A DNA stretch of 64,000 bases from a bacterium (lineage in GTDB: Bacteria; Patescibacteriota; Dojkabacteria; GCA-016699595; JBAXKR01), in NCBI GenBank assembly GCA_037131125.1, contig JBAXRR010000003.1:3682-67681 (forward strand), in the 5' to 3' direction. A program made the position numbers and the translations under genes. The notes beneath the pieces were generated by a model. It was given only the letters and a program-made list of their open reading frames with translations. It was not told the origin of the DNA and did no database searches. Positions within the stretch are counted from its first letter, which is position 1, and each line of letters begins with the position of its first letter. This document shows, one piece after another, positions 9,913 through 36,885 of this stretch.

Positions 9913-10404
9913 TTACATTTTTTTATATTTAAATTCCTGCATGTTTTTCCATGCTTTTTCTAAGAAAGCCTCTGACTTCTTAATGTCTCTGTTATATACC
10001 TCGTTTTGCACTTTGTTAATAAATCCTGCCCACATTGTTGCTGTCATTTCTTCTGCACTTTTAAAGTAGCTTGCCAAAATATCCATATCCTTTTTACTTA
10101 CTTTGGTAATATCAAAATCGTAGCTTAAGAATGATCTATAAATATCATAAGATAGACCTTTAGGAAACTTAGATTTGGTATATCTTTCAACAACTTCTTT
10201 AATCTCTTCAATCGTGTATGTTTTAAGTTCTTCTTTGTTAAAATTCCAAGGAGCTTTGCCTTGGAAAATATTTTTTACTTCAAGTCCAGTTAATATCCCA
10301 GTACTTGCTAAATTAAGTAATGGTTCAGGTGTTCCATCACTTAAACTAAAACCGTATTTATCAAATACTGCCTTCTGTTTTTGACTTTTAATAGTACTAA
10401 TTAT
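9913..10404 (-). CDS. hypothetical protein; reading frame open 9913..10416 but has no ATG/GTG/TTG near its 5' end
   Basis: Manual minus-strand translation gives a protein-like ~160 aa sequence (..KAPWNFNKEELKTYTIEEIKEVVERYTKSKFPKGLSYDIYRSF..MDILASYFKSAEEM..). The first ATG is only 57 codons from the stop. Candidate ATA/ATT starts lie at 10399-10404. Confidence 0.4.
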   Translation of the reverse strand: MISTIKSQKQKAVFDKYGFSLSDGTPEPLLNLASTGILTGLEVKNIFQGKAPWNFNKEELKTYTIEEIKEVVERYTKSKFPKGLSYDIYRSFLSYDFDITKVSKKDMDILASYFKSAEEMTATMWAGFINKVQNEVYNRDIKKSEAFLEKAWKNMQEFKYKKM

Positions 10405-10426
10405 ATTTCTAAATCGTTATATTTAA

Positions 10427-12400
<1,974 letters not shown>

Positions 12401-18930: not shown

Positions 18931-19065
18931 ATATTTGACAAATATTTTGTTAAATTGTATTTATTTAAGTAATTAAATTCCGAAGTAAATATACTTTACA
19001 TCATCATTAAAAAGAGTATATTTGAAGAAAGTATTTTTTTAGTTTATTTTTTATAAGGTTCAGCT

Positions 19066-19548
19066 ATGAACAACAAAAAAGCATTCACAATCGTTGAACT
19101 TCTGGTTGTGATGGCAGTTATCGGAGTATTGCTATCTCTTGCAGTATTCGGTATACAAGCATTACAAAAGAATCAAAGAGAGACTCAAAGATTAAATGAC
19201 CTGAGAAATGTCCAAGGTACATTAGAATCTTTTTATTCTAAGAACAAAAGATATCCTTTAGATACTGAACTTACAATCCCAGCAGGAACATCAAATTTTG
19301 TAGTTACAACTGGAGTTGGAAATGGAGCTCCAACATTTGCAACAATTCCTATACAGTCTTTGACTCCAACAATTGATGGTAGTAAAGCATATTCTGGTAC
19401 ACTAGCAAATGCACCATGTACAACTCCTGCAACAGCAGATACATGGGTATTAAATTATAGAATTGCAACAACTAGTCCACAAGAGTATGCATTATTTGGA
19501 TGTACTGAAAATGGTACAACAACTAACTTAGGAAGCAAGAACGACTAA
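19066..19548 (+). CDS. type IV major pilin paralog 1
   Basis: Class III signal MNNKKA|FTIVELLVVMAVIGVLLSLAVFG with Glu at +5. Conserved C-terminus ...YALFGCTENG..TNLGSKND. Confidence 0.85.
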   Translation: MNNKKAFTIVELLVVMAVIGVLLSLAVFGIQALQKNQRETQRLNDLRNVQGTLESFYSKNKRYPLDTELTIPAGTSNFVVTTGVGNGAPTFATIPIQSLTPTIDGSKAYSGTLANAPCTTPATADTWVLNYRIATTSPQEYALFGCTENGTTTNLGSKND

Positions 19549-19574
19549 GTTAAATCTTAATAAGATTATTAATA

Positions 19575-19603
19575 CCCCTAGAGAAATTTAGGGGTATTTT
19601 TTA
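19575..19603 (+). terminator. intrinsic terminator after pilin paralog 1
   Basis: CCCCTAGA-gaaa-TTTAGGGG then TATTTTTTA. Confidence 0.6.
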
Positions 19604-19698
19604 TCTATATTATTATATTTCGATAATCTTTTTACATCCTACCGAAAAAGAGTACACTAGTGATCAGTCTCATAAATTTTATTTATTATCTAGAATGT

Positions 19699-20172
19699 AT
19701 GGCAAGCAAAAAAGCCTTCACAATCGTAGAACTTCTCGTTGTGATGGCAGTGATTGGAGTACTGCTCTCCTTAGCAGTTTTCGGTATTCAGGCTTTACAA
19801 AAGAGTCAAAGAGAGACTCAGAGATTAAATGACTTGAGAAATATTCAAGGAACATTAGAATCTTTTTATTCTAAGAATAAAAGATATCCTCTAAATACTG
19901 AACTTCCAACTCCAGATACTACTAATTTTGTTATAACTGCAACTGGAGCAGCTACACCATTTGCAACAATTCCAATACAGTCACTAACTCCATCAATCTC
20001 AACAGACTATACTGCAACAAGTGCATATAAGACACCTCCTACTTGTCCAGCAACATCAGCAGATACATGGACAATATTCTACAGAGTATCAACAGATAGT
20101 CCTCAAGAATATGCATTATTTGCATGTACTGAGAATGGTTTATCAACTAACTTAGGAAGTAAAGTAGACTAA
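19699..20172 (+). CDS. type IV major pilin paralog 2 (start moved to MASKKAFTIVE)
   Basis: Same N-terminal prepilin segment and C-terminal module. The ORF-track start at 19660 adds an unlikely 13-aa leader. Confidence 0.8.
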   Translation: MASKKAFTIVELLVVMAVIGVLLSLAVFGIQALQKSQRETQRLNDLRNIQGTLESFYSKNKRYPLNTELPTPDTTNFVITATGAATPFATIPIQSLTPSISTDYTATSAYKTPPTCPATSADTWTIFYRVSTDSPQEYALFACTENGLSTNLGSKVD

Positions 20173-20198
20173 GTTAAATCTTAATAAGATTATTAATA

Positions 20199-20226
20199 CC
20201 CTGGAAGAAATTCTGGGGTATTTTTT
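20199..20226 (+). terminator. intrinsic terminator after pilin paralog 2
   Basis: CCCTGGAA-gaaa-TTCTGGGG (with G-U pairs) then TATTTTTT. The ~50 nt upstream are identical to the region after paralog 1. Confidence 0.55.
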
Positions 20227-20283
20227 GTTTCTTTCAAATATAGTATATTTATAATATATATATTATTTTTTACTTTCACAGGA

Positions 20284-20763
20284 ATGAAAAGTTTCAAAGC
20301 TTTCACAATTGTAGAACTTCTCGTTGTGATGGCAGTTATTGGAGTTCTATTATCTCTCGCAGTCTTTGGAATACAAGCACTTCAAAAGAATCAAAGAGAA
20401 ACTCAAAGACTAAGTGATTTGAGAAATATTCAAGGATCTTTAGAATCATATTATTCTAAATATAGGAGATATCCTAATGGAGAACAGATATATATTGAAA
20501 ATAATAATTATTCATTATTAGAAACAGATACAAATGGCGCAAGATTTGTATCTATTCCTATTCAATCATTAACTCCAACGATAATGACTCGAGAATATAT
20601 GTATGTTACATGCGATGCAAACGAAGGAGAGAATGCAAGTGCTGATTCATGGTGGGTTGGGTACGGAACATCAGTGCAAAACAATCCACAACAGTACGAA
20701 CTATATGCGTGTACAGAAAATGGAAAGTCTGTTAATTTGGGAACCGCTGGTAATCCACAATAA
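20284..20763 (+). CDS. type IV major pilin paralog 3
   Basis: MKSFKAFTIVELLVVMAVIG... and C-terminal ..YELYACTENGKSVNLG. Confidence 0.85.
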   Translation: MKSFKAFTIVELLVVMAVIGVLLSLAVFGIQALQKNQRETQRLSDLRNIQGSLESYYSKYRRYPNGEQIYIENNNYSLLETDTNGARFVSIPIQSLTPTIMTREYMYVTCDANEGENASADSWWVGYGTSVQNNPQQYELYACTENGKSVNLGTAGNPQ

Positions 20764-20798
20764 ATTAATGACAGTATTCTAATTTTACTATTAATAAA

Positions 20799-21398
20799 AT
20801 GAGATTAAATAACAAAGCATTTACTATTGTTGAACTTCTTGTTGTTATGGCAGTTATTGGAGTTCTATTATCTCTCGCAGTCTTTGGAATACAAGCACTT
20901 CAGAAAAATCAGAGGGAGACACAAAGATTAAATGATCTTAGAAATATTCAAGGATCTTTAGAATCCTATTACTCAAAGTATAGGAGATATCCAACTGAAA
21001 ATGAATTGAAAGATACATATGTTGCAACTGCTCCAAAATTACTAAATGGTAGTTTGTTAAATGAAATAAATGCTCAAAGACAAGTAGGTGGATTTGTACC
21101 TAGAGATCCTAACGTTTTTGTTCTATATTATGGAAATGTGGTTTATGCTACCATTCCAATCCAATCACTTACCCCTACTGTTATGAATGTTGGCTATATG
21201 TATGCAACCTGTTCAGATAATGGAATTAATTCAGATCAGCATGTAGCAACCGCAGATACATGGTGGGTTGGATATAGTACAGCTTTAGTTGATAACCCTC
21301 AAGAATATGGTCTATACGGTTGCACAGAAAACGGATTATCCACTAATTTAGGTAGCAAGAATGATGGTGAAGGAAATGGAAGAGTGTTTATAAATTAG
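20799..21398 (+). CDS. type IV major pilin paralog 4
   Basis: MRLNNKAFTIVELLVVMAVIG... and C-terminal ..YGLYGCTENGLSTNLGSKND. Confidence 0.85.
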   Translation: MRLNNKAFTIVELLVVMAVIGVLLSLAVFGIQALQKNQRETQRLNDLRNIQGSLESYYSKYRRYPTENELKDTYVATAPKLLNGSLLNEINAQRQVGGFVPRDPNVFVLYYGNVVYATIPIQSLTPTVMNVGYMYATCSDNGINSDQHVATADTWWVGYSTALVDNPQEYGLYGCTENGLSTNLGSKNDGEGNGRVFIN

Positions 21399-21479
21399 TC
21401 TGTTTTACTTATGATGACAAGTAAGATATATTTGAACAGAAATATAGTGAAAGTAATATAATATTTTATAGTTATCTTT

Positions 21480-22139
21480 ATGAAAAAAGCATTTACAATT
21501 GTAGAGCTGTTAGTGGTTATGGCAGTAATCGGTGTTTTGATTTCCTTATCCATTGTTGGAGTTCAAGCTGTTCAAAAAGCACAAAGAGAAACATCTCGGT
21601 TAACTGATTTAAGCAATATTCAAGGAGCTCTAGAATCATATTTCCAAAAATATGAAAGATATCCACTACAGCAAGAACTCGGTACAACATACGTTGCAGC
21701 ATATTCACCTACTTCTCCTTCAAATTTATTAAGTAAAAATTTATTGGGTGAGGTAAATGCAGTATTTGATATTCCTGGCAATGGTGGTCCACAACCACAA
21801 ATACCACCAGGCGGTCAAGATCCACAAAATCCAGGTCAACAGCAAAACCCAGGTGTAGGTCAACATCAATATAATCCTCCAAATGCTTTTGCTATATATA
21901 ATGGAGAAACTCAAATTTCCACTCTTCCAATGCAATCTCTTGGGTCAACAATTATGAATTCTGCATACTCAACTGAAACATGTGAATTTTCACCCGTATC
22001 AGCACATTTTGGAAAAGCAGATACATGGTGGATTGGATATACTGCTACTGGACCAACACCACAAAAATATGGGCTATATGCTTGCACAGAAAGTGGTAAG
22101 ACTAAAAATTTTGGAGTTAAAAATGATGCAGGAAATTGA
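21480..22139 (+). CDS. type IV pilin paralog 5 (divergent, with a Pro/Gln-rich insert)
   Basis: MKKAFTIVELLVVMAVIG... and C-terminal ..YGLYACTESGKTKNFG. Confidence 0.8.
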   Translation: MKKAFTIVELLVVMAVIGVLISLSIVGVQAVQKAQRETSRLTDLSNIQGALESYFQKYERYPLQQELGTTYVAAYSPTSPSNLLSKNLLGEVNAVFDIPGNGGPQPQIPPGGQDPQNPGQQQNPGVGQHQYNPPNAFAIYNGETQISTLPMQSLGSTIMNSAYSTETCEFSPVSAHFGKADTWWIGYTATGPTPQKYGLYACTESGKTKNFGVKNDAGN

Positions 22140-22172
22140 ATAATTTAAGCCAATATTTTGCTTTGTATATTT

Positions 22173-22706
22173 ATGAGAAAAGAAAACGACTCATTCACAA
22201 TTATTGAGCTTCTTGTAGTTATGGCAATTATAGGTATTCTTGTTACCTTAAGTATTGTTGGTATACAACAGGCACAAAAATCTACGAGAGTTACTAGAAT
22301 CAATAATACGACATTGTTACTTAAAGCTGAACTAACCAAGTACTATAACGAATTTAGACAATATCCGGTAAGTTTATGGGGAGATACTACAAACAGTGTT
22401 GTATTTATGTGTAATCCAAAATTCCCAGAGTGTGGAGCAAATAATGCACCGTATACAAGTTCAAATGTATATTCCTATGTTAAAGCAGATCAGGCAGGCT
22501 TCGGAGGTATGCAACAATATTTATCAGAAGATGGAGCACATTCTGAATCTTCTCAATGTATTAACGGAGGATCTGTAAACGAAGAAAATTGGTTGATATA
22601 CTATTCTGCGAACTCCTTAAATAGACCTCAAAGTTTTTATCTTGCATCTTGTAGTGAGAATGGTTGGAAGGAGTTTTCAGAAACTCCTCTTCCTGCTTCG
22701 AATTGA
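22173..22706 (+). CDS. type IV pilin paralog 6 (divergent; start at MRKENDSFTIIEL)
   Basis: Prepilin N-terminus S|FTIIELLVVMAIIG. C-terminal YLASCSENGWKEF. Confidence 0.75.
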   Translation: MRKENDSFTIIELLVVMAIIGILVTLSIVGIQQAQKSTRVTRINNTTLLLKAELTKYYNEFRQYPVSLWGDTTNSVVFMCNPKFPECGANNAPYTSSNVYSYVKADQAGFGGMQQYLSEDGAHSESSQCINGGSVNEENWLIYYSANSLNRPQSFYLASCSENGWKEFSETPLPASN

Positions 22707-22731
22707 TTTAGATATTTTAGATATTTATTCT

Positions 22732-23499
22732 ATGAAAAGAAATAACAATAGTTTTACAATTGTAGAAATTCTTGTAGTACTTGCTATTGTTGGCGTGTTA
22801 ATTGGGCTAAGCGTTGTTGGTATTCAACAGATTCAAAAATCAACAAGATCTTCAAAAGAAAATTCGTCTGTAGTGCAAATTAAAACCCATCTTGAAAGTT
22901 ACTATAATGAGTACAGACATTATCCAACTCCTAGCATGATTAAATTTGATAGTGATGCAAATGCAATATATATATGTACAGAATCTGCAACAAGTTGTAC
23001 CTCATCTACATCTACTGGTGTTTTTTCAGTGGTAAAAATTGAACAAGCTGGTGTAACTTCCATAGACAACTATGCTCAATCCAATGGAACCTATTCTGAA
23101 GCTCCTGTATGTAACCAAGATTTATCTTTGGGAGTAATTAATGAAGAGGTTTGGAGAGTATTCTATGGAGTAGTAAATTCAAGTTCAACAAAACCTCAAG
23201 GGTACTATTTAGCAACTTGTACTGAGATTGGTTGGAAAGATTTTTCAGAAAATCCTTTAGGAGATGGTGAAGTTATTCCCACGAATTCAGGAGACACTAG
23301 TGCAGTTGTAAATATATCTTTTCCATCTGTATCCTCATCATCTTTATCGTCAAAGCCAAACATTTTTTCAGTAACCTCATCAACATATACTAAGCCCATC
23401 TCAAACTCGTCAGCTACTTCGTCATCATGTGTATGTCTTCCTAAACAACAGTGTTTCTGTGTATACAGTTCCGCTGAGTATAGTACCTCACCTTTTTAA
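22732..23499 (+). CDS. type IV pilin paralog 7 (divergent, with a Ser-rich C-terminal tail; start at MKRNNNSFTIVEIL)
   Basis: Prepilin N-terminus. YYLATCTEIGWKDF, then a ~70 aa Ser/Thr-rich tail. Confidence 0.75.
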   Translation: MKRNNNSFTIVEILVVLAIVGVLIGLSVVGIQQIQKSTRSSKENSSVVQIKTHLESYYNEYRHYPTPSMIKFDSDANAIYICTESATSCTSSTSTGVFSVVKIEQAGVTSIDNYAQSNGTYSEAPVCNQDLSLGVINEEVWRVFYGVVNSSSTKPQGYYLATCTEIGWKDFSENPLGDGEVIPTNSGDTSAVVNISFPSVSSSSLSSKPNIFSVTSSTYTKPISNSSATSSSCVCLPKQQCFCVYSSAEYSTSPF

Positions 23500-23508
23500 A
23501 AGTATATT

Positions 23509-24369
23509 ATGAATAATATTGAAATAATAATAAGTATAGTTTTAGTTATATTTATTTTTGTTTTTGGTCTCATCTGGGGAAGTTTTATGAATGCTTTCTT
23601 ATATAGAACAAAGAATAATATTAGTTTAGTAAACAAAAGATCATTTTGTCCTAACTGTAAAGGAAAGATAAGTTGGTATGATAATATCCCTTTACTTTCA
23701 TATATTCTTCTCAGAGGAAAATGTAGACATTGTAAGAAAAAAATATCTATTCAATATCCAATTGTGGAATTATTTCTTGGTTTGATTTCTATTCTTGTAG
23801 CTTACATTACCCTTCCACATCCATTTTCAAATATATACACAGTAAGTAATCCACTTGTAAATATTTTAAGTTATTTGTTTATATTTTTCTTAGCATTTTT
23901 TATCATATATTTTTGTATATATGACATTCTTTATCTTGAAATTAATGACAAAGTAGCTTTTCTTGTGATTGGATTATTATTGGCTACAAATCTAGTTGCT
24001 ATTAAATTCCCTTTTGTAATTCACACACTTATTTTTAACATGCATTTTGGACTAGGTAATATTATTACAGGAATAATTGGACTAGCACTAATTGCTATAG
24101 TTATTTTACTTTCAAAGGGAAAGATGGGAGGAGGAGATTTGAGATTTATTGTTATCGTGGGATTAATTTGTGGACTTCAAAACTTCTATTTCACTTTTTT
24201 AAGTAGTGTAGTAATTGGAAGTGTTATTGGAATAATTTTAGGGTTAATAAAAGGAAAGATAAAGGGATTAGCACTCCCGTTTATCCCCTTCCTATCTTTG
24301 GGTTTACTATGTGGACTCATCTGGGGACAATTAATCTGGAGTAAACTATTCTTCTTCTGGGGGACTTAA
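23509..24369 (+). CDS. pilD: prepilin peptidase (A24 family)
   Basis: N-terminal CPNC...CRHC zinc motif and polytopic membrane domain with catalytic Asp regions (DILYLEIND). 286 aa. Confidence 0.8.
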
Positions 24370-24454
24370 AATACTTGATATTCAAGGTTTTTTCATCATA
24401 AATATTTCTTGATTCAATTGTAATTAATCCCGATTTATATTAGATTATACGCAT

Positions 24455-25069
24455 ATGATAAAGCTTTTTTCTGCCCAAAAAGCATATAGTTTGATTGAAC
24501 TTACTGTCAGTCTTGCAATTATTTCTATCCTACTTACCATGTCTACTATTGGTTTGATATCTTTAAGGGAAGGTCTTCTATTAAATTCAGCAACACAAGG
24601 TGTTTATGATGCAGTACAACTTGCAAGATCATATGCAATTAATAATGTAACATATTGGAATACAGACTCTGCTACACCAGAAATTCCAACGATGTATGTA
24701 ATTACACTAGGAAGTCCAATAAGCCTGATGTATTGTAATCTGCCAACGAATACAGCTATTTCTGATATTAATGTTGGAAGTGATTGTGCATTAACTACAG
24801 GAAGTATTTTTGATAGTGATATTGGTTCTGTAAGTATTAATAACAACCTAACAAATGGGTGTGAAGCAGTAGGTTTCTTAACTGGCACTGGAGAGATGTA
24901 TGTAAAACAACTAGGTTCTTCTAATAAATTTTATAACTCATCTAATCTGAATGGTGCTACTCAGGACAAAGCAATTTGTGACTTTGCTATTCAAAACGTA
25001 GATTCAATTAATCCAAGAACAGTTTATATAGAATCTGATGGTAATCGTCAAACAATTAAGAAAAAATAA
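24455..25069 (+). CDS. minor pilin / pseudopilin
   Basis: N-terminal QKA|YSLIELTVSLAIISILL class III signal with Glu +5. Confidence 0.65.
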   Translation: MIKLFSAQKAYSLIELTVSLAIISILLTMSTIGLISLREGLLLNSATQGVYDAVQLARSYAINNVTYWNTDSATPEIPTMYVITLGSPISLMYCNLPTNTAISDINVGSDCALTTGSIFDSDIGSVSINNNLTNGCEAVGFLTGTGEMYVKQLGSSNKFYNSSNLNGATQDKAICDFAIQNVDSINPRTVYIESDGNRQTIKKK

Positions 25070-25616
25070 AGCATTTAGTATTATTGAAATAATTATAGCT
25101 CTGGTATTTAGCTCAGTTATTTTAACTACATTTGTTTCCTTGTCCGCATGGGGACTTAATAATGCAAAAGATAATGAAGTTGAAGATACCGCAACTCAAA
25201 GTATGGTTGAAGTTAATGATTTATTAAGATCCTCAAGTGATATTTCTGTAGATACTGCGCCTACAATTCTATATGGATTTTATACTCTGAACTATGCTCA
25301 ACAAAATGCAACAGCGGCTGAGAGGAATAAGTTAATTAAGTTTTACACTGACTCAGGAATTTTTACTTTAGATGATTTAACACTAGATTTTTGCAGGAAT
25401 AATCCTTCCCTTCAGGTTAAATTTTCTGATGCGAGTTCTAATTTAATTACATCAAATGTTATTTGTGTAATGGCTAAGATCACAAAGATGCATGATAATC
25501 CTCTAGATAACAGATATACGTATACTATCAAGGTTGTTGCAGAAAAGTCTGGTGACCAATCCTATGAAGAAACAATAGATGGACTTAGAGTTGGAAATTT
25601 TATTGCTTCAAACTAA
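25038..25616 (+). CDS. minor pilin / pseudopilin
   Basis: N-terminal KNKA|FSIIEIIIALVF class III signal. Overlaps the previous gene by 32 nt. Confidence 0.6.
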   Translation: MVIVKQLRKNKAFSIIEIIIALVFSSVILTTFVSLSAWGLNNAKDNEVEDTATQSMVEVNDLLRSSSDISVDTAPTILYGFYTLNYAQQNATAAERNKLIKFYTDSGIFTLDDLTLDFCRNNPSLQVKFSDASSNLITSNVICVMAKITKMHDNPLDNRYTYTIKVVAEKSGDQSYEETIDGLRVGNFIASN

Positions 25617-25618
25617 TA

Positions 25619-26281
25619 ATGAAAAAGTTACTCTTAACACTTAAAAAAAGAATAAAGAATAGAAGATCAGTAAGTTTACTTGAACTTCTTATAACTCTTG
25701 GAATAATGGTTATTCTCCTTACTATGATTTCTAACGTGTTTGTTGAGGTTATGAGAATAAATATTTTAAATAAAGAAAGAACATTTGTAAGAGAAGAATC
25801 TGCAATATTACTTGCTCAAATGAAAAAAGATATTCGAAATGCAGATAGTTTAGATAATTGTGTAGATATTGTATTAAATGCTGGAGTAGGACAATCCAGT
25901 AATGATTGCACTTTTAATACTGGTGGAAAAAAATATGAATGGAAGTTTGAAGCAGCAGCATCCCCTTTTGATCAAGATGGATATGTTGCCAATAAATATT
26001 TGGTAACAAGAGATCCAATAACAGGACAAGATAATGTATTTACATTAATATACACAAGTCCAGATGGGATTCTTTTTGACTTGGATCCAACACCTGGAAA
26101 TACTAGCAGTACAAATAAAATATTTACTATTCTTTCAGATCCACTTAGTCAAGATGGAGAGTTGACTGTTTTAATAAAGTTAGTTGCAAAATCTTTCCCA
26201 GGAGAGCCACTTTCTGAGCCTGCTGTAAAGAACGTTATAAAGCAAACTATTGTCTCTGCTAGAAATTTTAGTAGCAATTAG
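25619..26281 (+). CDS. minor pilin / pseudopilin
   Basis: N-terminal NRRS|VSLLELLITLGIMVIL class III signal. Confidence 0.6.
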   Translation: MKKLLLTLKKRIKNRRSVSLLELLITLGIMVILLTMISNVFVEVMRINILNKERTFVREESAILLAQMKKDIRNADSLDNCVDIVLNAGVGQSSNDCTFNTGGKKYEWKFEAAASPFDQDGYVANKYLVTRDPITGQDNVFTLIYTSPDGILFDLDPTPGNTSSTNKIFTILSDPLSQDGELTVLIKLVAKSFPGEPLSEPAVKNVIKQTIVSARNFSSN

Positions 26282-26345
26282 TTCTTAGTAATATTAAGAT
26301 AGTATACTGATGATGTAATAAAAATTAGATGTAATAACAAATAAT

Positions 26346-27392
26346 ATGAAACTGCCCGAATTCTTTGGATTAGACATTGGTAATCACACAATTAAAGTGT
26401 GTGAGACTAGATGGGAAGGAGATACTCCTGTTCTAGTTGCACTTGGAAGTTACGAAACTCCTTTTGGAGTTATTGGTTCTGAGAATACAGAACATAAAAG
26501 GCAATTAGCTGAGAATATAAAGAAAGCTGTAGCTGCATCAGGAATTAAGACTAAAAATGCAGTCGTTGCACTTCCTGAAGGAGCAATATTCACAAGACTT
26601 GTTCCAGGTTTTCCAAAAGTGTCTGACGATAAACTAGCTGAAGCAATTCTCTACGAAGCAAAAAAATATATTCCTATTCCTCCAGAAGAAACAAATATTG
26701 ATCATATGGTTGTAGGAGAGAGAACACAAGATGGGAAGGTCTTAATCGATGTTCTAATTGTTGCAGCTCCAAAAAGTCTAGTTGAAAGATATATGGAAAT
26801 ATTAAAACTATCTGGCCTTGAAGGATTAGCACTAGAAACAGAAGCAATTGCAACAACAAGATCGATTTCTTCACAAAAGAATTTTGATAAAACCAAAGCG
26901 GCTATTGTTTTAGACTTTGGTGCAAATGGAACTGATCTTAGTGTTATTAAAGGTGAGAGTTTATTATTCTCTCAGAGTTTAGGAACAGGTTCAGATGCAT
27001 TTACAAGGGCTATTGCTGTAGATTTTGGACTTACAACTCCTCAAGCTGAACAATACAAAAGAGTATATGGATTAGACGAAACAAAGGCAGAAGGAAAGAT
27101 TGCAAAGTCCCTCTACCCTATTATTCAGATTATCGCTATTGAAATAACTAAAACTATGGACTTTTTTAAGACTAGATTTGTAAATATGGTTCCTCAGAAG
27201 ATATACATAGTTGGAGATGGTGGAAAACTTCCTGGTTTGGCTGCATATTTAAGTAAAATATATAACATAGATTGTGAACTTGCTAAGCCATTTCAAGACT
27301 TTAAGATAGATGAGAAACTTAAGAAAGATATGGCTCAATTATCTGACGTAGGGTTTACAGTAGCCACAGGTTTAGCTTTAAAGAAAGAATAA
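26346..27392 (+). CDS. pilM: type IV pilus assembly protein PilM (actin-like ATPase fold)
   Basis: FGLDIGNHTIKV N-terminus, 348 aa, and position just upstream of PilN/O-like genes. Confidence 0.7.
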   Translation: MKLPEFFGLDIGNHTIKVCETRWEGDTPVLVALGSYETPFGVIGSENTEHKRQLAENIKKAVAASGIKTKNAVVALPEGAIFTRLVPGFPKVSDDKLAEAILYEAKKYIPIPPEETNIDHMVVGERTQDGKVLIDVLIVAAPKSLVERYMEILKLSGLEGLALETEAIATTRSISSQKNFDKTKAAIVLDFGANGTDLSVIKGESLLFSQSLGTGSDAFTRAIAVDFGLTTPQAEQYKRVYGLDETKAEGKIAKSLYPIIQIIAIEITKTMDFFKTRFVNMVPQKIYIVGDGGKLPGLAAYLSKIYNIDCELAKPFQDFKIDEKLKKDMAQLSDVGFTVATGLALKKE

Positions 27393-27393
27393 C

Positions 27394-27945
27394 TTGCCTA
27401 AGAACTATATAAACTTACTTACAAAAAAGACTCAAGGAGAACTTAAGGATGCAAAGAATATAGAGTTCTCTTCTATCTATTCAGCATTCCTTCCAATTCT
27501 TGCATGTGTTGTATGGATAGGACTTGTTATTGCAAATGGTGCAGTCTCTCAGAATGTAAAGATTGAAAAAGTGAATATAGAGACACAAAAGACAATGGAA
27601 AATGATATGTCTGTTTACCAAAAGAACAATGGACAACTTGTACAAAAAGTAGATATTCTTAAACCAATTATTCAGAAAGATGTAGATCCAAATAAAGTAT
27701 TTGATCAGATAAGAAAGAATCTTTCTACATATAGCGAAATATTAAGTATAGATGGATATACAAGAAAATCTGATGGACAATTTAGCTTTAGTGGAAAATC
27801 TAAAACATATTTAGATTTATCAAGGGTTATTAAAAAATTTGAGCAAAATACTGAACTTAAAAATGTCAATTTGAAGTCAATTGCATATAACAAAGATGCT
27901 GATATTGTTACCTTTTCAGTTACATTTTATTACGTAACGCTTTAA
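27394..27945 (+). CDS. pilN: PilN-like bitopic pilus alignment protein
   Basis: N-terminal YINLL motif, single TM, 183 aa, and follows pilM by 1 nt. Confidence 0.55.
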   Translation: MPKNYINLLTKKTQGELKDAKNIEFSSIYSAFLPILACVVWIGLVIANGAVSQNVKIEKVNIETQKTMENDMSVYQKNNGQLVQKVDILKPIIQKDVDPNKVFDQIRKNLSTYSEILSIDGYTRKSDGQFSFSGKSKTYLDLSRVIKKFEQNTELKNVNLKSIAYNKDADIVTFSVTFYYVTL

Positions 27946-27949
27946 GATT

Positions 27950-28759
27950 ATGGAACTTGCAGATAGAGATTTAAAAATAGCTGATGATGTTTCTGGGAGT
28001 ATTAAGAAGTCTACTAAAAAAGACTTTGTAGATGTCCTTAAACAATATTCAATTCCTTTGATAAGTGTTTCCCTATTCTTAGGAGTAGCTATAATTAGTA
28101 TCTTTCCAACAGCAACAAGTATTTTTGATAACTACAAGCAATTGGATAAGCTTAAGGCAAGTGAGAAGACTAATCAGGATACATTAGATAAGCTTACAAC
28201 TTTGAAGGAAAGAGATGCTCAAACAATTAGTGATCTTGCAACGATTGATCAAATAGTTCCTTCTGAAAAAACTAAAATAGTTGGTCTTCAACAGTTTATT
28301 CAAGATAAAACAAAACAATATAATCTTGATCTTAAGGAAATGACTATCGGTGAACAGTTACAAAAGGTTTCAGATGGGACATCTACAACAAAGACTTCAA
28401 AGGTTGCTACTGTAGATGCGCAAGGTAATCCTATTAAAAATACGGAAGATAGCTTACGCGTTGCTCCTACTACCGCAAAGATTGAAGGAAAGTTTGCAGA
28501 TATTCAGAGTTTCTTTTCCGACTTCTATAAAGTTAATGATTTGTACATAATAACTACTATGAATCTTAAATCTTCAACATCTATTTCTCCTAATCAGATA
28601 ACTACGAGTGATGCAAAGTGGTCATTAGATATTACATTTTCTAAATATGCATTTTCGGAAGATTTCTTAACTAACTCAGTTGCATTTACAAAGATTCCTA
28701 TTTCTTCTGTCCCGGATTCTACAGTTCTTAAATATTTGAGAGATAGGTATACGAAATAA
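27950..28759 (+). CDS. PilO-like bitopic coiled-coil protein
   Basis: Single TM then a coiled-coil region. Position after pilM/pilN. Confidence 0.4.
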   Translation: MELADRDLKIADDVSGSIKKSTKKDFVDVLKQYSIPLISVSLFLGVAIISIFPTATSIFDNYKQLDKLKASEKTNQDTLDKLTTLKERDAQTISDLATIDQIVPSEKTKIVGLQQFIQDKTKQYNLDLKEMTIGEQLQKVSDGTSTTKTSKVATVDAQGNPIKNTEDSLRVAPTTAKIEGKFADIQSFFSDFYKVNDLYIITTMNLKSSTSISPNQITTSDAKWSLDITFSKYAFSEDFLTNSVAFTKIPISSVPDSTVLKYLRDRYTK

Positions 28760-28762
28760 AAA

Positions 28763-28788
28763 AGGAACTATTTCTAGTTCCTTTTTAT
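28763..28788. terminator. bidirectional intrinsic terminator between the PilO-like gene and the KH-domain gene
   Basis: AGGAACTA-tttc-TAGTTCCT, with A-run before and T-run after. Confidence 0.6.
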
Positions 28789-28810
28789 AACTTCAAATGT
28801 TTTGTTTTTC

Positions 28811-29041
28811 TTAGTCTAATACCTTTATGTAAACTCTTTTCCCTTCTCTTACTGCTATTAAAGCAACAGTATCTCTTATTGCTTTAATATTTCTACCAAG
28901 TTTACCAATTATTAGGGGTTTATCTTCGTTATTAAGTGTAAGATTAAGTGTGATGTTTGTACCATCTGCTACCTCTTCTACTTTAACGTCATCAGGGAAT
29001 TTAGTCACTGATTTAGCGATATATTCTAATAACTCTTTCAT
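28811..29041 (-). CDS. KH-domain RNA-binding protein (YlqC/UPF0109-like)
   Basis: GKLGRNIKAIRDTV KH signature. 76 aa. Lies next to rpsP as in many bacteria. Confidence 0.65.
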   Translation of the reverse strand: MKELLEYIAKSVTKFPDDVKVEEVADGTNITLNLTLNNEDKPLIIGKLGRNIKAIRDTVALIAVREGKRVYIKVLD

Positions 29042-29085
29042 AGAAATAAAGTTATAAGTAAAATACTAAAATTCCTTATTTCTAA

Positions 29086-29391
29086 CTATTTTTTCTTTGC
29101 TGCCTTCATCTCAGCTTTAGATTTTCTTTCTACTCTAACTCTTTTTCTAGCTTCTAAAAGACCTTCTTTTGCAAAGATATCGTGAACAGTTTCTGTAGGT
29201 TTTACACCTTTAGATAACCAATCTTTTATTTTATCTTTTTCTAATTTAATAACGGCTGGTTTTTCAAGTGGGTCGTAAGTACCTACTAAATCTACATATT
29301 CACCTTGTCTTTTATCTCGAGCTTCATTTACAACAATTCTGTAATGAGGTTCTCTTTTCTTTCCAAATCTCATTAATTTAAACTTAAGCAT
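29086..29391 (-). CDS. rpsP: 30S ribosomal protein S16 (start moved to internal MLKFKLMRFGKK)
   Basis: MLKFKLMRFGKKREPHYRIVV.. matches the S16 N-terminus. Confidence 0.8.
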   Translation of the reverse strand: MLKFKLMRFGKKREPHYRIVVNEARDKRQGEYVDLVGTYDPLEKPAVIKLEKDKIKDWLSKGVKPTETVHDIFAKEGLLEARKRVRVERKSKAEMKAAKKK

Positions 29392-29443
29392 GTAATCCAA
29401 ATAATAAATTAAAATCACTAACTTCCCGATTATATCATAGCAA

Positions 29444-30199
29444 TTAAGGCTTTTGTAGCACTTTTAGTGCTTCTAGAGCTGCATTTTGCTCTGCATCTTG
29501 CTTACTTTTGCCTTTTCCACTTCCATATACCTTGTCTTGTATCTTTATACACATGGTAAATATCTTACTGTGGTCTGGTCCTTCTTCGTTAATAAGCTCA
29601 TAATATGGAGTAGATTTGAATGTTAATTGAGCTATCTCTTGTAATCTAGATTTTGGGTCAATATCTGACCTTGAAGCAACTATAGCATCTAGTTTTCCAT
29701 AGAGTTCTCTTTTGAGAAATTTTTCTACAACATCTAAACCACTGTCTAGGTATATAGATCCAAGTATTGCTTCGAATGTGTTAGCAAGCACATATGTTCT
29801 ACTTCTTCCACCAGTTGTTTCTTCTCCTCTACTCATATATATGTACTTACCTACTCCTAATCTAGTGCTAATTTCAGACAAGGATTCGGTTTTAACAAGC
29901 GCTGCTCTAAAACTTGTCAAATCACCCTCAGGTCTACCTGGAAGCTTTTTAAAAAGGAAATCTGATGTTAGAAGTTCAAGTACTGCATCTCCTAAAAATT
30001 CTAATCTTTCGTTATTTTCGAATTCTGTATTTTTAACTTCATTTAAGAAAGATCTATGTATTAATGCAGATTTTAGAAGTACAGCATCGTTGAATTTAAC
30101 TCCCAATATTTTTTCAAGTTCATCGAATTTTTCTCTCTCATCGCTTGTTATATTCTTACTCATTTGATTTATCTGTGATATCTTTTTTTGATTCAACAA
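29444..30199 (-). CDS. rnc: ribonuclease III
   Basis: ERLEFLGDAVLELL signature and a C-terminal dsRBD (..GSGKGKSKQDAEQNAA..). Confidence 0.9.
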   Translation of the reverse strand: MLNQKKISQINQMSKNITSDEREKFDELEKILGVKFNDAVLLKSALIHRSFLNEVKNTEFENNERLEFLGDAVLELLTSDFLFKKLPGRPEGDLTSFRAALVKTESLSEISTRLGVGKYIYMSRGEETTGGRSRTYVLANTFEAILGSIYLDSGLDVVEKFLKRELYGKLDAIVASRSDIDPKSRLQEIAQLTFKSTPYYELINEEGPDHSKIFTMCIKIQDKVYGSGKGKSKQDAEQNAALEALKVLQKP

Positions 30200-30617
30200 C
30201 GGAGGAGTCCTTATTATCTAAAGCCTTATCTAGTACTCCATTTACAAAAGAAGAATCTGAATCACTACCAAACTCTTTTGCAAGCTCAATGGATTCATCA
30301 ATGACAACCTTTCTAGGAGTTATTTTCAATATATTATATTCCAGTATTGCCATTTGCATAATGATTAAGGATGTTTTGGAGATTTGATCAAGTGGTCTTT
30401 CTATTGCATATTTACTAATTATTGCAGATATTACTTCTTCGTTGGATTTAAAATTTGTAGTTAACTTGGAAAATAGAGATTCATCAAATCTTGTTATATC
30501 ACTCATCTCACTCATATCCTCCATACTAATATGGATAAGATCAGGGAAGTAGCTTTGATAGATTTGTTCGATGGCTAAAATTCTTGCGCTATGTCTAGGG
30601 TCAGTATATTTTTTCAC
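30156..30617 (-). CDS. nusB: transcription antitermination factor NusB-like
   Basis: N-terminal RHSARILAIEQIYQ resembles the NusB R..AR..A.Q.LYQ motif. 153 aa. Confidence 0.55.
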   Translation of the reverse strand: MKKYTDPRHSARILAIEQIYQSYFPDLIHISMEDMSEMSDITRFDESLFSKLTTNFKSNEEVISAIISKYAIERPLDQISKTSLIIMQMAILEYNILKITPRKVVIDESIELAKEFGSDSDSSFVNGVLDKALDNKDSSVVESKKDITDKSNE

Positions 30618-30645
30618 AAGTAGTTTTCTCTAAGATAGATTAAAC

Positions 30646-30825
30646 CTATTTTACTTCTAATATTTTCTTACCTCTGTAGATTCCACTAAATGGACTTACT
30701 CTATGAGGAAGTGTTGATTTTTTACTTACGGATTCTACTGCTAATTGAGGCTTCTTAAGTCTATCCATAGACCTTCTTTTTAAGCTTCTAGCCTTCGAAT
30801 TCTTTCTTTTTGGTAATGCACCCAT
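30646..30825 (-). CDS. rpmF: 50S ribosomal protein L32 (not in the ORF track; 59 aa)
   Basis: Manual translation gives MGALPKRKNSKARSLKRRSMDRLKKPQLAVESVSKKSTLPHRVSPFSGIYRGKKILEVK. The L32 hallmarks are PKRK.SKSR..RR and HR....G.Y.G. Confidence 0.8.
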   Translation of the reverse strand: MGALPKRKNSKARSLKRRSMDRLKKPQLAVESVSKKSTLPHRVSPFSGIYRGKKILEVK

Positions 30826-30914
30826 ATCAGTATATAAATATATTAAACTAAGATATTATACAGGAAGAAGCCTAAATTCCCAAGGAATATTTAATATCTC
30901 TCTAAAAATGTACT

Positions 30915-31406
30915 TTAATCGTTTATTGTTCCATCGTTTTTGCTACCTAGATTGTTACTTTTCCCATTCTCTGTGCATGCAAATAGACCATATTCTTGAG
31001 GGCTCTGAGGGTTTGTACCATAGAAAATAGTCCATGTGTCTGCTGTTGCTGGATGATCAGCACATACAGTTGGATTATTGTATATATCAGGAAAGAATGA
31101 AGGGGTTAAAGATTGTATAGGAATTGTTGCAAAAATAATTGTACCTCCTTGTCCATGTTGCCCGTAATCAATGTAGAAATTGGTTCCTTCTGCTACAACT
31201 TCCATAGTGTTAATTGGATATCTTCTGTATTTTGAGTAAAAAGATTCCAGAGATCCTTGAATATTTCTCAAATCGTTTAATCTTTGTGTTTCTCTTTGGT
31301 TCTTTTGAAGTGCTTGAATTCCAAATACTGCAAGCGATAAGAGTACACCTATTACTGCCATTACAACAAGAAGTTCTACAATAGTGAACGCTTTTTTATT
31401 ATGCAT
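30915..31406 (-). CDS. type IV major pilin paralog 8 (start at MHNKKAFTIVEL)
   Basis: Same conserved N-terminal ~60 aa and C-terminal ..YGLFACTENGKSNNLGSKND as the plus-strand tandem array. Confidence 0.8.
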   Translation of the reverse strand: MHNKKAFTIVELLVVMAVIGVLLSLAVFGIQALQKNQRETQRLNDLRNIQGSLESFYSKYRRYPINTMEVVAEGTNFYIDYGQHGQGGTIIFATIPIQSLTPSFFPDIYNNPTVCADHPATADTWTIFYGTNPQSPQEYGLFACTENGKSNNLGSKNDGTIND

Positions 31407-31571
31407 ACTAAGTAAAATTAATTTATTCTTACAAAATATATCATAAACGTTAAATGAAAAGATTATGGTCATTGTTTAGGGCATGTTTAATAGTGAATGA
31501 CCCATTATTTTTAAGCGTTTTATATACGGTACTTATAAACAATTGACCGGATTTCTGGAGTTGCTACACTA

Positions 31572-32060
31572 TTAATCAGTATTCTTACTTCCCAAGTTAG
31601 TAGTTTTACCATTTTCTGTACATGCGAATAAAGCATACTCTTGTGGGTTAACTGCTCCAAATGCTGCAGAAGTGTGGTATTGAACCCACCAAGTATCTGC
31701 TGTTGCTATATGTCCATCGTCGTCAGAGCAGGTTGCAGAATTATATCCATCGTTAAATTCTGTTGGTGTTAATGATTGGATAGGAATAGTAGCAAAATTT
31801 ATAGCCCCTACACCAACTCCGTATGTGATTTCAAAATTGGTATCAACTACATTAAATTCAGTTTGAAGCGGATATCTCCTATACTTTGAATAGTAAGATT
31901 CTAATGATCCTTGAATGTTTCTCAAATCGTTTAATCTTTGTGTCTCTCTTTGATTCTTTTGTAATGCTTGTATTCCAAAGACTGCGAGAGATAATAGTAC
32001 CCCTATGACTGCCATCACAACCAATAGTTCTACTATTGTGAAAGCTTTAAGTTTTTTCAT
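31572..32060 (-). CDS. type IV major pilin paralog 9 (start at MKKLKAFTIVEL)
   Basis: Conserved N- and C-terminal pilin modules. Confidence 0.8.
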   Translation of the reverse strand: MKKLKAFTIVELLVVMAVIGVLLSLAVFGIQALQKNQRETQRLNDLRNIQGSLESYYSKYRRYPLQTEFNVVDTNFEITYGVGVGAINFATIPIQSLTPTEFNDGYNSATCSDDDGHIATADTWWVQYHTSAAFGAVNPQEYALFACTENGKTTNLGSKNTD

Positions 32061-32103
32061 TTGAATATTTTGTAAATTTAATAATTTCTCTATTTTGTTC
32101 AGA

Positions 32104-32580
32104 TTAGAAATCGTTTTTCGCTCCAAAGTTTTGTGTTTTTTCGTTTTCTGTACATGCAAAGAGAGCATAAGTTTGAGGATTTGGGTTTAGAGCTCCCACA
32201 TGATACATAACCCACCAAGTATCTGCTGTAGCTCCAAGACCATTAGTCTCGCAATTTGTAATGTCGTCATAGCCCTCGTCAGAAAATTTAGGAGTCAAAG
32301 ATTGTATTGGAATTGTTACGAATTCTGGACCACTATTTCCAATCGTTATTTTAAAATTACTCCCATCTATGATAAGTTCATTTACGACTGGATATCTTCT
32401 GTACTTTGAGTAATATGATTCCAATGAACCTTGTATGTTCTTGAGATCTTGAAGTCTCTGAGTTTCTCTTTGATTCTTCTGAAGAGCTTGTATACCAAAT
32501 ACAGCTAAAGAGAGAAGTACACCTATCACTGCCATCACAACTAGTAGTTCTACTATTGTGAAAGCTTTGAAATTTTTCAT
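32104..32580 (-). CDS. type IV major pilin paralog 10
   Basis: MKNFKAFTIVELLVVMAVIG... and C-terminal ..YALFACTENEKTQNFGAKND. Confidence 0.85.
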   Translation of the reverse strand: MKNFKAFTIVELLVVMAVIGVLLSLAVFGIQALQKNQRETQRLQDLKNIQGSLESYYSKYRRYPVVNELIIDGSNFKITIGNSGPEFVTIPIQSLTPKFSDEGYDDITNCETNGLGATADTWWVMYHVGALNPNPQTYALFACTENEKTQNFGAKNDF

Positions 32581-36835: not shown

Positions 36836-36885
36836 GACTATATTCTTGCAGAACTAATCTATTAATGCAAAGAAGTTAATAATCA

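Follow-up and report, generated by a model that had tools for sequence, protein, structure and literature searches.

The window, a 64-kb stretch of DNA from an uncultured Dojkabacteria-like (CPR) bacterium, contains only one type IV pilus locus, in which the pilin genes surround the pilus assembly genes (Table 1). A single set of machinery genes adjoins the pilin genes in the window, comprising pilB, pilT, pilC, pilD, pilM, pilN, pilO, and three minor pilin genes. As described in the earlier note, there are ten pilin genes, all of them full-length open reading frames, and they are arranged in two opposed blocks that bracket pilD, the minor pilin genes, pilM/N/O, and KH-rpsP-rnc-nusB-rpmF, an arrangement confirmed by open reading frames and Pfam. 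The KH-rpsP-rnc-nusB-rpmF genes are intervening housekeeping genes outside the pilus system. In this genome, the main array is composed of five A-type and two B-type pilin genes, and three A-type genes lie beside rpmF. The pilT-like ATPase has a low-complexity N-terminal extension of ~200 aa. The minor pilins are 62-67% identical to their orthologues in the sister species ELA406, and matching genes are also present in a distant relative; the PF07963 match is above the cut-off in the first minor pilin and sub-threshold in the third (18.2 bits versus a cut-off of 21.2, E 0.0018).

Table 1. Genes and transcription signals of the type IV pilus locus (positions in the window)
Feature	Position	Strand	Basis
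pilB-type assembly ATPase, 739 aa	13765..15984	+	Pfam T2SSE 1.2e-128, MshEN domain
pilT-like ATPase, 548 aa	16056..17702	+	Pfam T2SSE 2.7e-42, residues 310-468
pilC platform protein	17707..18930	+	Pfam T2SSF 1.3e-54, two repeats
promoter-like site ahead of p1	18995-19022		promoter/terminator scan
p1, A-type, 160 aa, first gene after pilC	19066..19548	+	PF07963 1.7e-7, alignment
terminator-like hairpin after p1, 12-bp stem and T-run	19571..19607	+	promoter/terminator scan
p2, A-type, 157 aa	19699..20172	+	alignment, repeats
terminator-like hairpin after p2	20195..20231	+	promoter/terminator scan
p3, A-type, 159 aa	20284..20763	+	alignment
p4, A-type, 199 aa, ~40-aa insertion after helix	20799..21398	+	PF07963 1.4e-6, alignment
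p5, divergent A-type, 219 aa, Pro/Gln-rich insertion	21480..22139	+	PF07963 1.3e-4, alignment
p6, B-type, 177 aa	22173..22706	+	PF07963 3.2e-6; ~31% identical to p1
p7, B-type, 255 aa	22732..23499	+	PF07963 1.2e-5, alignment
pilD prepilin peptidase	23509..24369	+	Pfam A24_N_bact 1.7e-31, Peptidase_A24 1.8e-6
three minor pilin genes	24455-25069, 25038-25616, 25619-26281	+	PF07963, ELA406 orthologues
pilM	26346-27392	+	Pfam PilM_2 1.8e-44
pilN	27394-27945	+	Pfam PilN 7.6e-5
pilO-position gene	27950-28759	+	named by position alone, without Pfam match
KH-domain gene, rpsP, rnc, nusB, rpmF	28811..30825	-	ORFs; gene calls and Pfam marks on identical contig L001
p8, A-type, 163 aa, adjoins rpmF	30915..31406	-	alignment
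p9, A-type, 162 aa; copy modelled	31572..32060	-	
p10, A-type, 158 aa	32104..32580	-	PF07963 1.5e-6, alignment
terminator of SPFH gene, preceding p10	32689-32664		

The prepilin cleavage/methylation motif PF07963 is present in every pilin gene scanned with Pfam (p1, p4-p7, and p10), and NCBIfam TIGR02532 also matches p1 and p6. By alignment, p2, p3, p8, and p9 have the same N terminus as the copies that carry PF07963, and Phe+1 and Glu+5 are found in all ten pilins. The eight A-type pilins (p1-p5 and p8-p10) have in common a near-identical N-terminal helix (α1), a central FATIPIQSLTP motif, a Cys pair, and an ADTW…PQEY…CTENG tail. The B-type pilins, p6 and p7, are a separate, older pilin class, ~30% identical overall to the A-type and with a C-terminal module that is merely degenerate; the family is therefore one of eight plus two members rather than ten. 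The conserved C-terminal module previously ascribed to all ten genes holds in full only for the eight A-type copies. In the window, p6 is the best match to R_b, the B-type pilin of the distant relative, and p7 ends in a Ser/Thr-rich, Cys-containing tail. Nor do the centers of the pilins differ completely, as had been thought, given that the eight A-type copies retain the 11-residue (F)ATIPIQSLTP segment and a central conserved Cys. The A-type pilins vary in three segments (mean pairwise identity 7-27%), which are set between three conserved β-core segments (60-71%).

The opposed layout is kept in ELA406 with fewer copies. One pilin gene, E_rpmF, is oriented as in the window and located between the SPFH gene and rpmF, the position occupied in the window by p8, and at least five pilin genes (at least four A-type and one B-type) are located upstream of pilD. 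In the distant relative (L036/L037), the gene order is gyrB-holB-pilB-pilT-pilC, one A-type and one B-type pilin gene, pilD, and the rest. Single-copy orthologues of the window and ELA406 differ with a dS of 0.57-1.7, and the synonymous divergence of the pilin paralogues within the window is that of orthologues between the sister species. The pilin paralogues are old and stable.

The nucleotide identity of the shared 5′ segments, first estimated at ~80-90%, is 76-89% for p1-p4 and p8-p10, 64-72% for p5, and 49-55% for p6 and p7. Repeats are far above chance: the direct families measure 218-238 nt, and the 17 inverted pairs reach 216 nt. In the N-part (58 codons), dN is 0.01-0.10, and dS is 0.64-0.76 in the three closest pairs and >1 or saturated elsewhere; dN/dS of the helix is ~0.02-0.05. 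Identity at third codon positions is 38-74% versus 91-97% at first and second positions. In the seven closest copies, just 10 of the 60 third positions never vary, and nucleotide runs without variation are at most 8 nt long. What is conserved in the shared 5′ segment is the protein rather than the DNA, through purifying selection and not homogenization, and the suggestion that these segments serve as tracts for gene conversion or inversion is not borne out.

The locus probably represents a lineage-specific tandem expansion of a major pilin, in which the assembly helix is invariant and the surface loops have diversified, and not a switch. Two readings had been offered for the layout: a variation system, which is not supported, and a repertoire of pili for different hosts or surfaces, a putative function that fits the data. 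In such an expansion, the major-pilin gene would have multiplied through tandem duplication, and the helix, as filament core and contact to the assembly platform, would be under strong purifying selection in every copy. Because of this selection on the helix, all eight A-type pilins are probably made as protein, passed on by PilD to one common PilB/PilC machine, and assembled. The filaments could be mixed (mosaic) or alternative, according to which promoters are active, and the variable segments would create fibers with different binding or antigenic surfaces, which, if true, would be useful to an episymbiont for host recognition or evasion of pilus-specific phages. The diversity would stem from duplication and divergence over evolutionary time rather than programmed recombination, with exchange of 5′ segments being at most rare and old.

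This organization is reminiscent of the adhesion pilins PilA1-PilA6 of Haloferax volcanii, which are likewise full-length paralogues with an almost invariant N-terminal hydrophobic domain and differing C-terminal parts. These six pilins have a common H-domain, each alone can form a pilus, and which subset is used is thought to vary with conditions (Esquivel et al. 2013, as reviewed in PMC4371748). Unlike the present pilins, those of H. volcanii are archaeal PibD substrates, their genes are scattered and away from the biosynthesis genes, and only the ~30-aa H-domain is conserved. Here, the genes lie in two arrays within the pil locus, conservation covers the whole ~58-residue helix plus the C-terminal module, and the function is putative. 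Similar to the locus described here, that of Streptococcus sanguinis PilE1/PilE2 is a monoderm-type T4P locus without PilQ (PMC10628169, PMC6497953). Its adjacent major-pilin paralogues interact equally with themselves and with each other and co-polymerize to give a mosaic surface (PMC10628169, PMC6497953), with stochastic polymerization into one filament (PMC10628169). S. sanguinis has two highly similar paralogues, whereas the eight found here have globular parts that are only ~25-50% identical, and co-assembly is proven in S. sanguinis and only inferred here. Pilin families are enriched in CPR (PMC6744442). N. lyticus TM7x (Saccharibacteria), also a CPR bacterium, has pilB/T/C/D/M/N/O, no PilQ, many pilin genes, and the combination of fast-diverging C-terminal domains with conserved machinery (PMC11623550, PMC6744442). 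Its 12 predicted pilins (8 by TXSScan and 4 by structure prediction) are structurally diverse and are distributed over four loci and two systems with one major pilin each (PMC11623550), whereas here a single pilin type is amplified eight-fold in one locus.

It is possible, if somewhat doubtful, that birth-and-death evolution was accompanied by occasional unprogrammed gene conversion of 5′ segments, a slow concerted evolution that would help purifying selection to keep the helices similar and would yield occasional mosaic pilins, again without a switch. When identical recombination tracts were sought by nucleotide alignment, only the adjacent pair p3/p4 had a nominally long one (56 nt, p=0.003, but 0.09 after Bonferroni correction). 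Since p3 and p4 share this tract, some past exchange of 5′ segments is possible, and dS for this pair is 0.68 in the N-part and saturated in the mid and C parts. Similarly, dS between E_a and E_b of ELA406 is 0.28 in the N-part versus 0.69 in the mid part and 0.93 in the C part; for p1-p2, it is 0.49-0.78 across all three gene parts. The N-parts cluster by species, with bootstrap values of 85% for p1/p2 and 78% for E_a/E_b, but recent independent duplications in each species would also explain these clusters. In addition, the N- and C-part trees conflict: p5 and E_d of ELA406 group with 99% bootstrap in the former and 0% in the latter, and p8 and E_rpmF with 0.3% and 60-65%, respectively. This conflict may be noise, given how short the segments are (171 nt) and that the C-parts have reached saturation.

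Strong terminator hairpins and matched promoter-like sites are observed at p1 and p2 alone. From their 3′ ends through the downstream regions with the hairpins, these two genes are 82% identical, and the p2 hairpin fits a pattern derived from that of p1. The p2 gene is a tandem duplicate of the p1 unit, including the promoter-like site and terminator, and the two genes look like separate monocistronic units. These signals would suit an arrangement with one major pilin, most likely p1, which directly follows pilC and has its own terminator; the remaining A-type copies would then be accessory or tip pilins present in small amounts, or decaying duplicates that do little. In each system of N. lyticus TM7x, a small pilin with high expression is taken as the major subunit, accompanied by many minor pilins (PMC11623550). 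Such an arrangement is unlikely here. Open reading frames, Cys pair, and core motifs are intact in all eight A-type copies, which match the distant relative's single-copy A-type pilin in size and shape, and dedicated minor pilins are already present downstream of pilD. Decaying duplicates are ruled out because the low dN/dS of the helix is maintained across saturated synonymous distances.

Programmed variation would entail RecA-mediated conversion or inter-block inversion via the 5′ segments, switching the variable domain behind an active promoter, and would resemble Neisseria pilE/pilS, Moraxella Piv, or the R64 shufflon. The silent copies of Neisseria lack a promoter and 5′ end. In the systems that invert pilin genes site-specifically, Moraxella tfpQ/tfpI (Piv) and the R64 shufflon (Rci/pilV), a single constant 5′ segment is combined with alternative 3′ segments that have no starts of their own, the crossover sites are short and identical, and a recombinase gene is adjacent. 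The locus shares with these systems opposed pilin sequences, a constant N-terminal region, and alternative C-terminal regions, but it lacks their single 5′ segment, startless 3′ segments, crossover sites, and adjacent recombinase gene. Piv-mediated pilin inversion is mentioned in PMC4073114. As in the present case, a single N. gonorrhoeae genome carries many sequences related to pilin, made up of conserved and variable segments (PMC3547852, PMC13463697). In pilE/pilS, however, one gene is expressed and many copies are silent (PMC3547852), and high-frequency RecA-dependent conversion is begun by a G4 and sRNA element (PMC3547852, PMC13463697), whereas here the copies are complete, G4 is absent, synonymous sites have reached saturation, and the population is uniform.

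The block-to-block inverted repeats (180-216 nt, 73-87% identity, longest exact match 33 nt), the exact tracts of 32-33 nt between blocks (p1/p9, p3/p9, and p4/p9), the likeness of p3 and p10 in the leader and ~25 nt upstream of the start codon, and a RecG helicase gene in the window would be in keeping with such a system. However, none of the inter-block identical tracts is significant after correction, synonymous sites in the shared segments are near saturation, and no invariant nucleotide site could act as a crossover site. No silent or truncated pilin cassettes and no G4 motif are found in the window, where every copy is a complete gene that has its leader; near the pilin blocks, neither an invertase nor a Piv or Rci gene was found, and the sole recombinase in the window is Xer-like and 14 kb away. 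The block orientation is kept in ELA406, and the convergent KH/rpsP join is also present in the distant relative. Same-strain contigs were collected by exact protein look-up, in which the neighbors of unchanged genes are compared and chimeric pilins are not directly findable. The 17 same-strain loci, which represent 13 distinct contigs from ten assemblies (nine samples and MAG GCA_964617495.1), match the window over their whole length at 99.7-100%. Every contig is collinear, with no alternative junctions or inversions at the consensus level; rare subpopulation variants would be missed because assemblies report consensus sequence. Programmed variation is thus largely refuted at the consensus level and highly improbable; nothing points to programmed rearrangement, and the antigenic or phase-variation-like layout with inversion of ~8 kb, as proposed in the earlier note, is not supported. 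One odd contig end among the same-strain sequences is a Nextera adapter, and a SNP at 31195 (V71A in p8) is the sole difference between the window and five contigs of four other assemblies.

A single set of assembly machinery is encoded in the window, within a complete, monoderm-style type IV pilus locus. The pilin genes adjoin pilB, pilT, pilC, pilD, pilM, and pilN, and their products are predicted to be processed and assembled by PilD, PilB, and PilC. The prepilin genes are termed p1–p7, the main array on the plus strand, and p8–p10, the block beside rpmF on the minus strand. The repeats formed by these genes are real and comprise direct families of 218–238 nt and 17 pairs in inverted orientation, the longest 216 nt, at 73–87% identity. 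A matched promoter-like site precedes each of p1 and p2, and a strong terminator with a 12-bp stem follows each, so that they look like independent monocistronic units. The genes p3–p7 are separated by short spacers and lead into pilD, and p10, p9, and p8 come after the terminator of the SPFH gene. The hairpin before p10 resembled the p1 and p2 hairpins at first sight but gave no match to the p1-hairpin pattern within three mismatches. The closest named relatives of GyrB are from Candidatus Dojkabacteria/WS6 (62–66% identity), which places the organism among the CPR/Patescibacteria.

Coordinates and content of the features discussed (window positions unless a contig is named)
Feature	Position	Strand	Content
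Xer-like tyrosine recombinase gene	4210-5268	+	Phage_integrase and SAM-like N domain
Type IV pilus locus	13.7-28.8 kb	+	pilB, pilT-like ATPase gene, pilC, seven prepilin genes, pilD, three minor pilin genes, pilM, pilN, pilO-position gene
PilT-like ATPase gene	16056-17702	+	Pro/Glu/Lys/Val/Ser-rich low-complexity N-terminal extension of ~200 residues before the T2SSE domain (residues 310-468)
p1-p7	19066-23499	+	Main array
Prepilins with Ala or Ser at -1	19066-32580; 24455-26281		Every prepilin of the locus
p5 insertion	about 21770-21880		Pro/Gln/Gly-rich, ~35 residues
p7	22732-23499	+	Extended C-terminus at ~23200-23499
Contig ends in three independent assemblies	23590-23635		5' end of pilD, very AT-rich
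Block converging on the pil locus		-	KH-domain gene, rpsP, rnc, nusB, rpmF, then three prepilin genes and an SPFH/Band-7 gene
p8-p10	30915-32580	-	Prepilin genes beside rpmF
SNP in p8	31195		Non-synonymous, Val71 to Ala
1451-aa protein gene	35639-41241	-	fn3/PhoD_N/purple-acid-phosphatase-N-like repeats
tRNA-Ser	58104-58193
592-aa protein gene	58241-60019	-	C-terminal Mrr_cat restriction-endonuclease domain, long uncharacterised N-terminal part
Contig L008 (ENA metagenome)	1-16		Untrimmed Nextera transposase adapter
Contig L039 (GCA_964430225.1)	10001-11767		Family pilin P0053 of a more distant relative

The prepilin genes number ten, as the earlier note had it, but they fall into two classes rather than one family: eight A-type genes (p1–p5 and p8–p10) and two B-type genes (p6 and p7). 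The A-type products have in common the helix, a central (F)ATIPIQSLTP motif, a pair of cysteines, and an ADTW…PQEY.LF.CTENG…GSKND tail. The p6 and p7 products match the A-type at about 30% identity and retain no more than a degenerate tail. In a more distant relative (contigs L036 and L037), which has the same gene order (gyrA-gyrB-holB-pilB-pilT-pilC-…-pilD-minor pilins-pilMNO), the equivalent slot holds just two pilins, one nearest the A-type (48% identical to p2) and the other nearest the B-type (36% to p6), indicating that A and B are old, separate lineages. The 80–90% nucleotide identity ascribed to the shared N-terminal segment holds, as 76–89%, for seven genes and does not extend to the rest. 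Nor do the centers differ completely: among the eight A-type copies, mean pairwise identity is 89% in the helix, 60–71% in three core segments, and 7–27% in the three variable segments that separate them. These eight copies are full-length paralogues with a near-identical helix and differing heads, a feature of multi-major-pilin repertoires.

The encoded proteins pass as type IV pilins (class III signal peptide, T4aP-like). PF07963 scores above cut-off in all seven pilins scanned (p1, p4–p7, p10, and the first minor pilin) and TIGR02532 in p1 and p6; p2, p3, p8, and p9 carry the same prepilin motif by alignment. All ten begin with a short basic leader of 4–7 residues followed by F-T-I-(V/I)-E (Phe+1, Glu+5). 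In place of the canonical Gly at position -1, the contexts are K-A|F in the A-type, (D/N)-S|F in the B-type, and A|Y, A|F, and S|V in the minor pilins; the pilin E_e of ELA406, a sister-species MAG, has Gly. The use of Ala or Ser throughout the locus suggests that the PilD of this lineage may have a relaxed or shifted -1 specificity. An AF2 model of p9 (pLDDT 89.7) has the "lollipop" fold, with a helix spanning residues 9–60 and six strands. A Foldseek search of the model against the PDB gave no significant match, and the p9 head is thus distant from solved pilins. Two cysteines (Cys111 and Cys147 in p9), which could form a putative disulfide, are kept in all eight A-type sequences and across the wider family. 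The C-terminus of p7 comprises a Ser/Thr-rich tail of ~80 residues and then a Cys-rich motif (…SSSCVCLPKQQCFCVYS…), which may be a glycosylated or cross-linked extension.

The shared 5' segment is conserved as protein and not as DNA. Over 58 codons, beginning at Phe+1 and closing with the Tyr-Pro at the helix end, the seven close copies (p1–p4 and p8–p10) are 91–97% identical at first and second codon positions and 38–74% identical at third positions, with 10 of 60 third positions invariant. By the Nei-Gojobori method, dN in this segment is 0.01–0.10, dS is 0.64 for p1/p2, 0.68 for p3/p4, and 0.76 for p3/p9, exceeding 1 or being saturated in all other pairs, and dN/dS in the helix is about 0.02–0.05 for every copy. 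Set against the dS of 0.57–1.7 for single-copy genes of the window and ELA406, these values indicate that most of the paralogues are at least as old as the split from ELA406. The longest exact matches are a 56-nt tract in the adjacent genes p3 and p4 and pair-specific matches of 32–33 nt between the two blocks (p1/p9, p3/p9, and p4/p9). In a codon-shuffling test, only the p3/p4 tract stands out (p = 0.003, ~0.09 corrected for 28 pairs). The dN/dS of about 0.5–1 in the variable center is unreadable as positive selection because dS is saturated there.

Comparison with relatives places the layout in an evolutionary order. ELA406 (contig L010) has the same opposed arrangement, one pilin being flanked by the SPFH gene and rpmF and a group of at least five preceding pilD; the distant relative (L037) retains the convergent join between the pil operon and the KH/rpsP block. 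The arrangement is therefore ancestral and stable, copy number having risen by duplication, with one, at least five, and eight A-type copies in the three related genomes. Scans of genome and metagenome contigs with p9 returned only the ELA406 type as a relative, the rest being unrelated pilins matching at the N-terminus alone, so the comparison spans these three genomes rather than a broad set. Exact-protein look-up of PilD and of P0011 returned no record, and homologues of PilD (next best 58% identical, on a 1.4-kb contig; others <40%) are too divergent for synteny to be anchored on them. The PilT-like ATPase of the distant relative (L036) has just 444 residues.

The earlier note described the locus largely correctly, and of the two readings it offered, a repertoire of pili is probably the best explanation. 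An A-type pilin, single-copy in the distant relative, would have been amplified to eight copies. The helix would form the filament core and would have to fit PilD and the PilC/PilM-N-O platform; its near-invariance in every copy, despite saturated dS, is expected only where every copy is translated and has a use. Differences in the outer surfaces of the fibers would come from the three variable segments. The low dN/dS of every copy and the single machinery set in the window point indirectly to paralogues that may each be expressed and built into pili by one apparatus, jointly or as substitutes for one another, with the copies either sharing a filament or serving in turn. In S. sanguinis, PilE1 and PilE2 are mixed within one filament (PMC10628169), and for the six PilA pilins of H. 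volcanii, which have a common H-domain, alternate use has been proposed (PMC4371748). More speculatively, and as a rather unlikely reading, the eight A-type pilins with their one invariant core helix could be co-expressed or expressed host-dependently and polymerized by the single PilB/PilC into mosaic or alternative filaments, through which a CPR episymbiont would broaden its range of hosts or evade phages that target pili, with rare 5'-anchored conversion generating new mosaics over evolutionary time. If so, the heteropolymeric S. sanguinis pilus, built from two subunits, would have an eight-subunit counterpart here. CPR bacteria, in which type IV pili are regarded as the principal organ of host contact, are already known to carry numerous pilins per genome, with heads that diverge quickly (PMC6744442, PMC11623550). 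The present case stands out because one pilin type has expanded eight-fold within the assembly locus and because the three relatives form a clean series of copy numbers, which is natural material on how pilin repertoires grow. That a genome with few spare genes keeps eight versions of a major pilin under strong selection suggests that diversity of the fiber surface matters to the lifestyle, and the locus is a good candidate for asking whether one machine builds mixed filaments.

Occasional past conversion of the 5' segments, as an evolutionary process and not a switch, is a rather unlikely contributor, although several traces are consistent with it. Trees of the N-part join p1 with p2 (85% bootstrap) and the ELA406 pilins E_a with E_b (78%). 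The pairing of p5 with E_d has 99% bootstrap in the N-part and 0% in the C-part, and p8 joins its positional counterpart, E_rpmF, in the C-part only (60–65%, versus 0.3% in the N-part). The dS of E_a/E_b is 0.28 in the N-part versus 0.69 and 0.93 elsewhere, and the identical p3/p4 tract is of the same kind. The segments are short, however, and the C-parts saturated, and conversion is for that reason regarded as a graded possibility rather than a finding.

A variation system working by gene conversion or inversion through the 5' segments, the other reading in the earlier note, is unsupported in view of the protein-level conservation, the absent hallmarks, and the uniform consensus assemblies. 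None of the tested defining features of Neisseria pilE/pilS, or of inversion systems based on Piv or Rci, is seen in the locus. Neisseria-type systems have one expression locus and promoterless, 5'-truncated silent cassettes. Here, in contrast, 10 of 10 genes have a start codon, a leader, and a complete helix, and with all copies complete, neither pilS-like cassettes nor shufflon-like 3' segments occur. The cis-acting G4-forming sequence found near the expressed Neisseria gene has no counterpart, a search for G3+N1-7 x4 on both strands of the whole 64-kb window being negative, and the frequent pilin change of Neisseria populations is not seen at the consensus level. Piv/tfpQI and the Rci shufflon have a dedicated recombinase gene beside the invertible DNA, whereas Pfam searches found no recombinase domain in ORFs of at least 100–120 aa at 10–62 kb (those at 34.9–41.8 kb being covered by precomputed Pfam marks on the identical contig L001) and, close to the locus, no gene of the invertase, Piv/IS110, or Rci-like kind. 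The sole recombinase found in the window, the Xer-like enzyme, lies 14 kb from the locus, beyond gyrA and gyrB; its top NCBIfam matches are XerC, XerD, and XerA, all under equivalog cut-offs. The short inverted crossover sites of Piv and Rci are nucleotide-identical, whereas the longest run invariant across the seven close copies is 8 nt, leaving no common crossover site for a site-specific recombinase. Both orientations occur in populations or relatives of those systems, and here contigs crossing the block boundary have one orientation only. A 2026 preprint on a "novel pilus system in CPR" is not a match, as it deals with donor-strand-exchange Pam pili and not type IV pilins. The locus adds no new recombination mechanism; as a negative example, it illustrates that conserved ends, a variable middle, and inverted copies can come from protein-level selection alone.

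The same strain was retrieved by exact-protein look-up in ten independent assemblies of lake metagenomes (five ENA samples, one extra contig from a sixth ENA sample, three JGI samples, and one NCBI MAG). Lake metagenomes that contain the strain include ENA ERZ27299977, ERZ27300010, ERZ27300065, ERZ27300082, and ERZ27300127 and JGI 3300020158, 3300020163, and 3300020228. All 17 loci (13 different contigs) match the window along their full length at 99.7–100%, including contigs spanning pilC-p1…p7-pilD and SPFH-p10-p9-p8-rpmF…pilD; those covering the main array match it at 100%, and every contig across the block boundary is in the window's orientation. The rearrangement envisaged for population data is thus not seen in these collinear contigs, which are consensus assemblies reached by exact-match look-up, an approach that rare subpopulation variants could escape. 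Base-by-base comparison of five contigs from four other assemblies (18 kb, window 23.6–42 kb) turned up a single SNP, located where the first variable segment of p8 begins; the only other differences were a run of N and leftover adapter sequence. The contig ends near the start of pilD, which fall within ~40 nt of each other, look like a coverage drop rather than a structural breakpoint, contig L015 reading through them. Likewise, the 16 non-matching end bases of L008 are not an alternative junction; they are adapter sequence, TGTGTATAAGAGACAG, left in a public assembly.

Other genes were noted around the locus and in relatives. The 1451-aa protein gene adjoins a GH18 chitinase-like gene, and as the pair also lies next to the pilin block in ELA406, a further cell-surface or host-interaction module is possible. 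The gene for the Mrr_cat protein adjoins tRNA-Ser. The pilin P0053 is 38% identical to p9 and is encoded alone, apart from any pilus machinery; its gene is flanked on one side by that of a 762-aa S8 peptidase containing Big_13 repeats and on the other by that of a cohesin-like protein of 396 aa.
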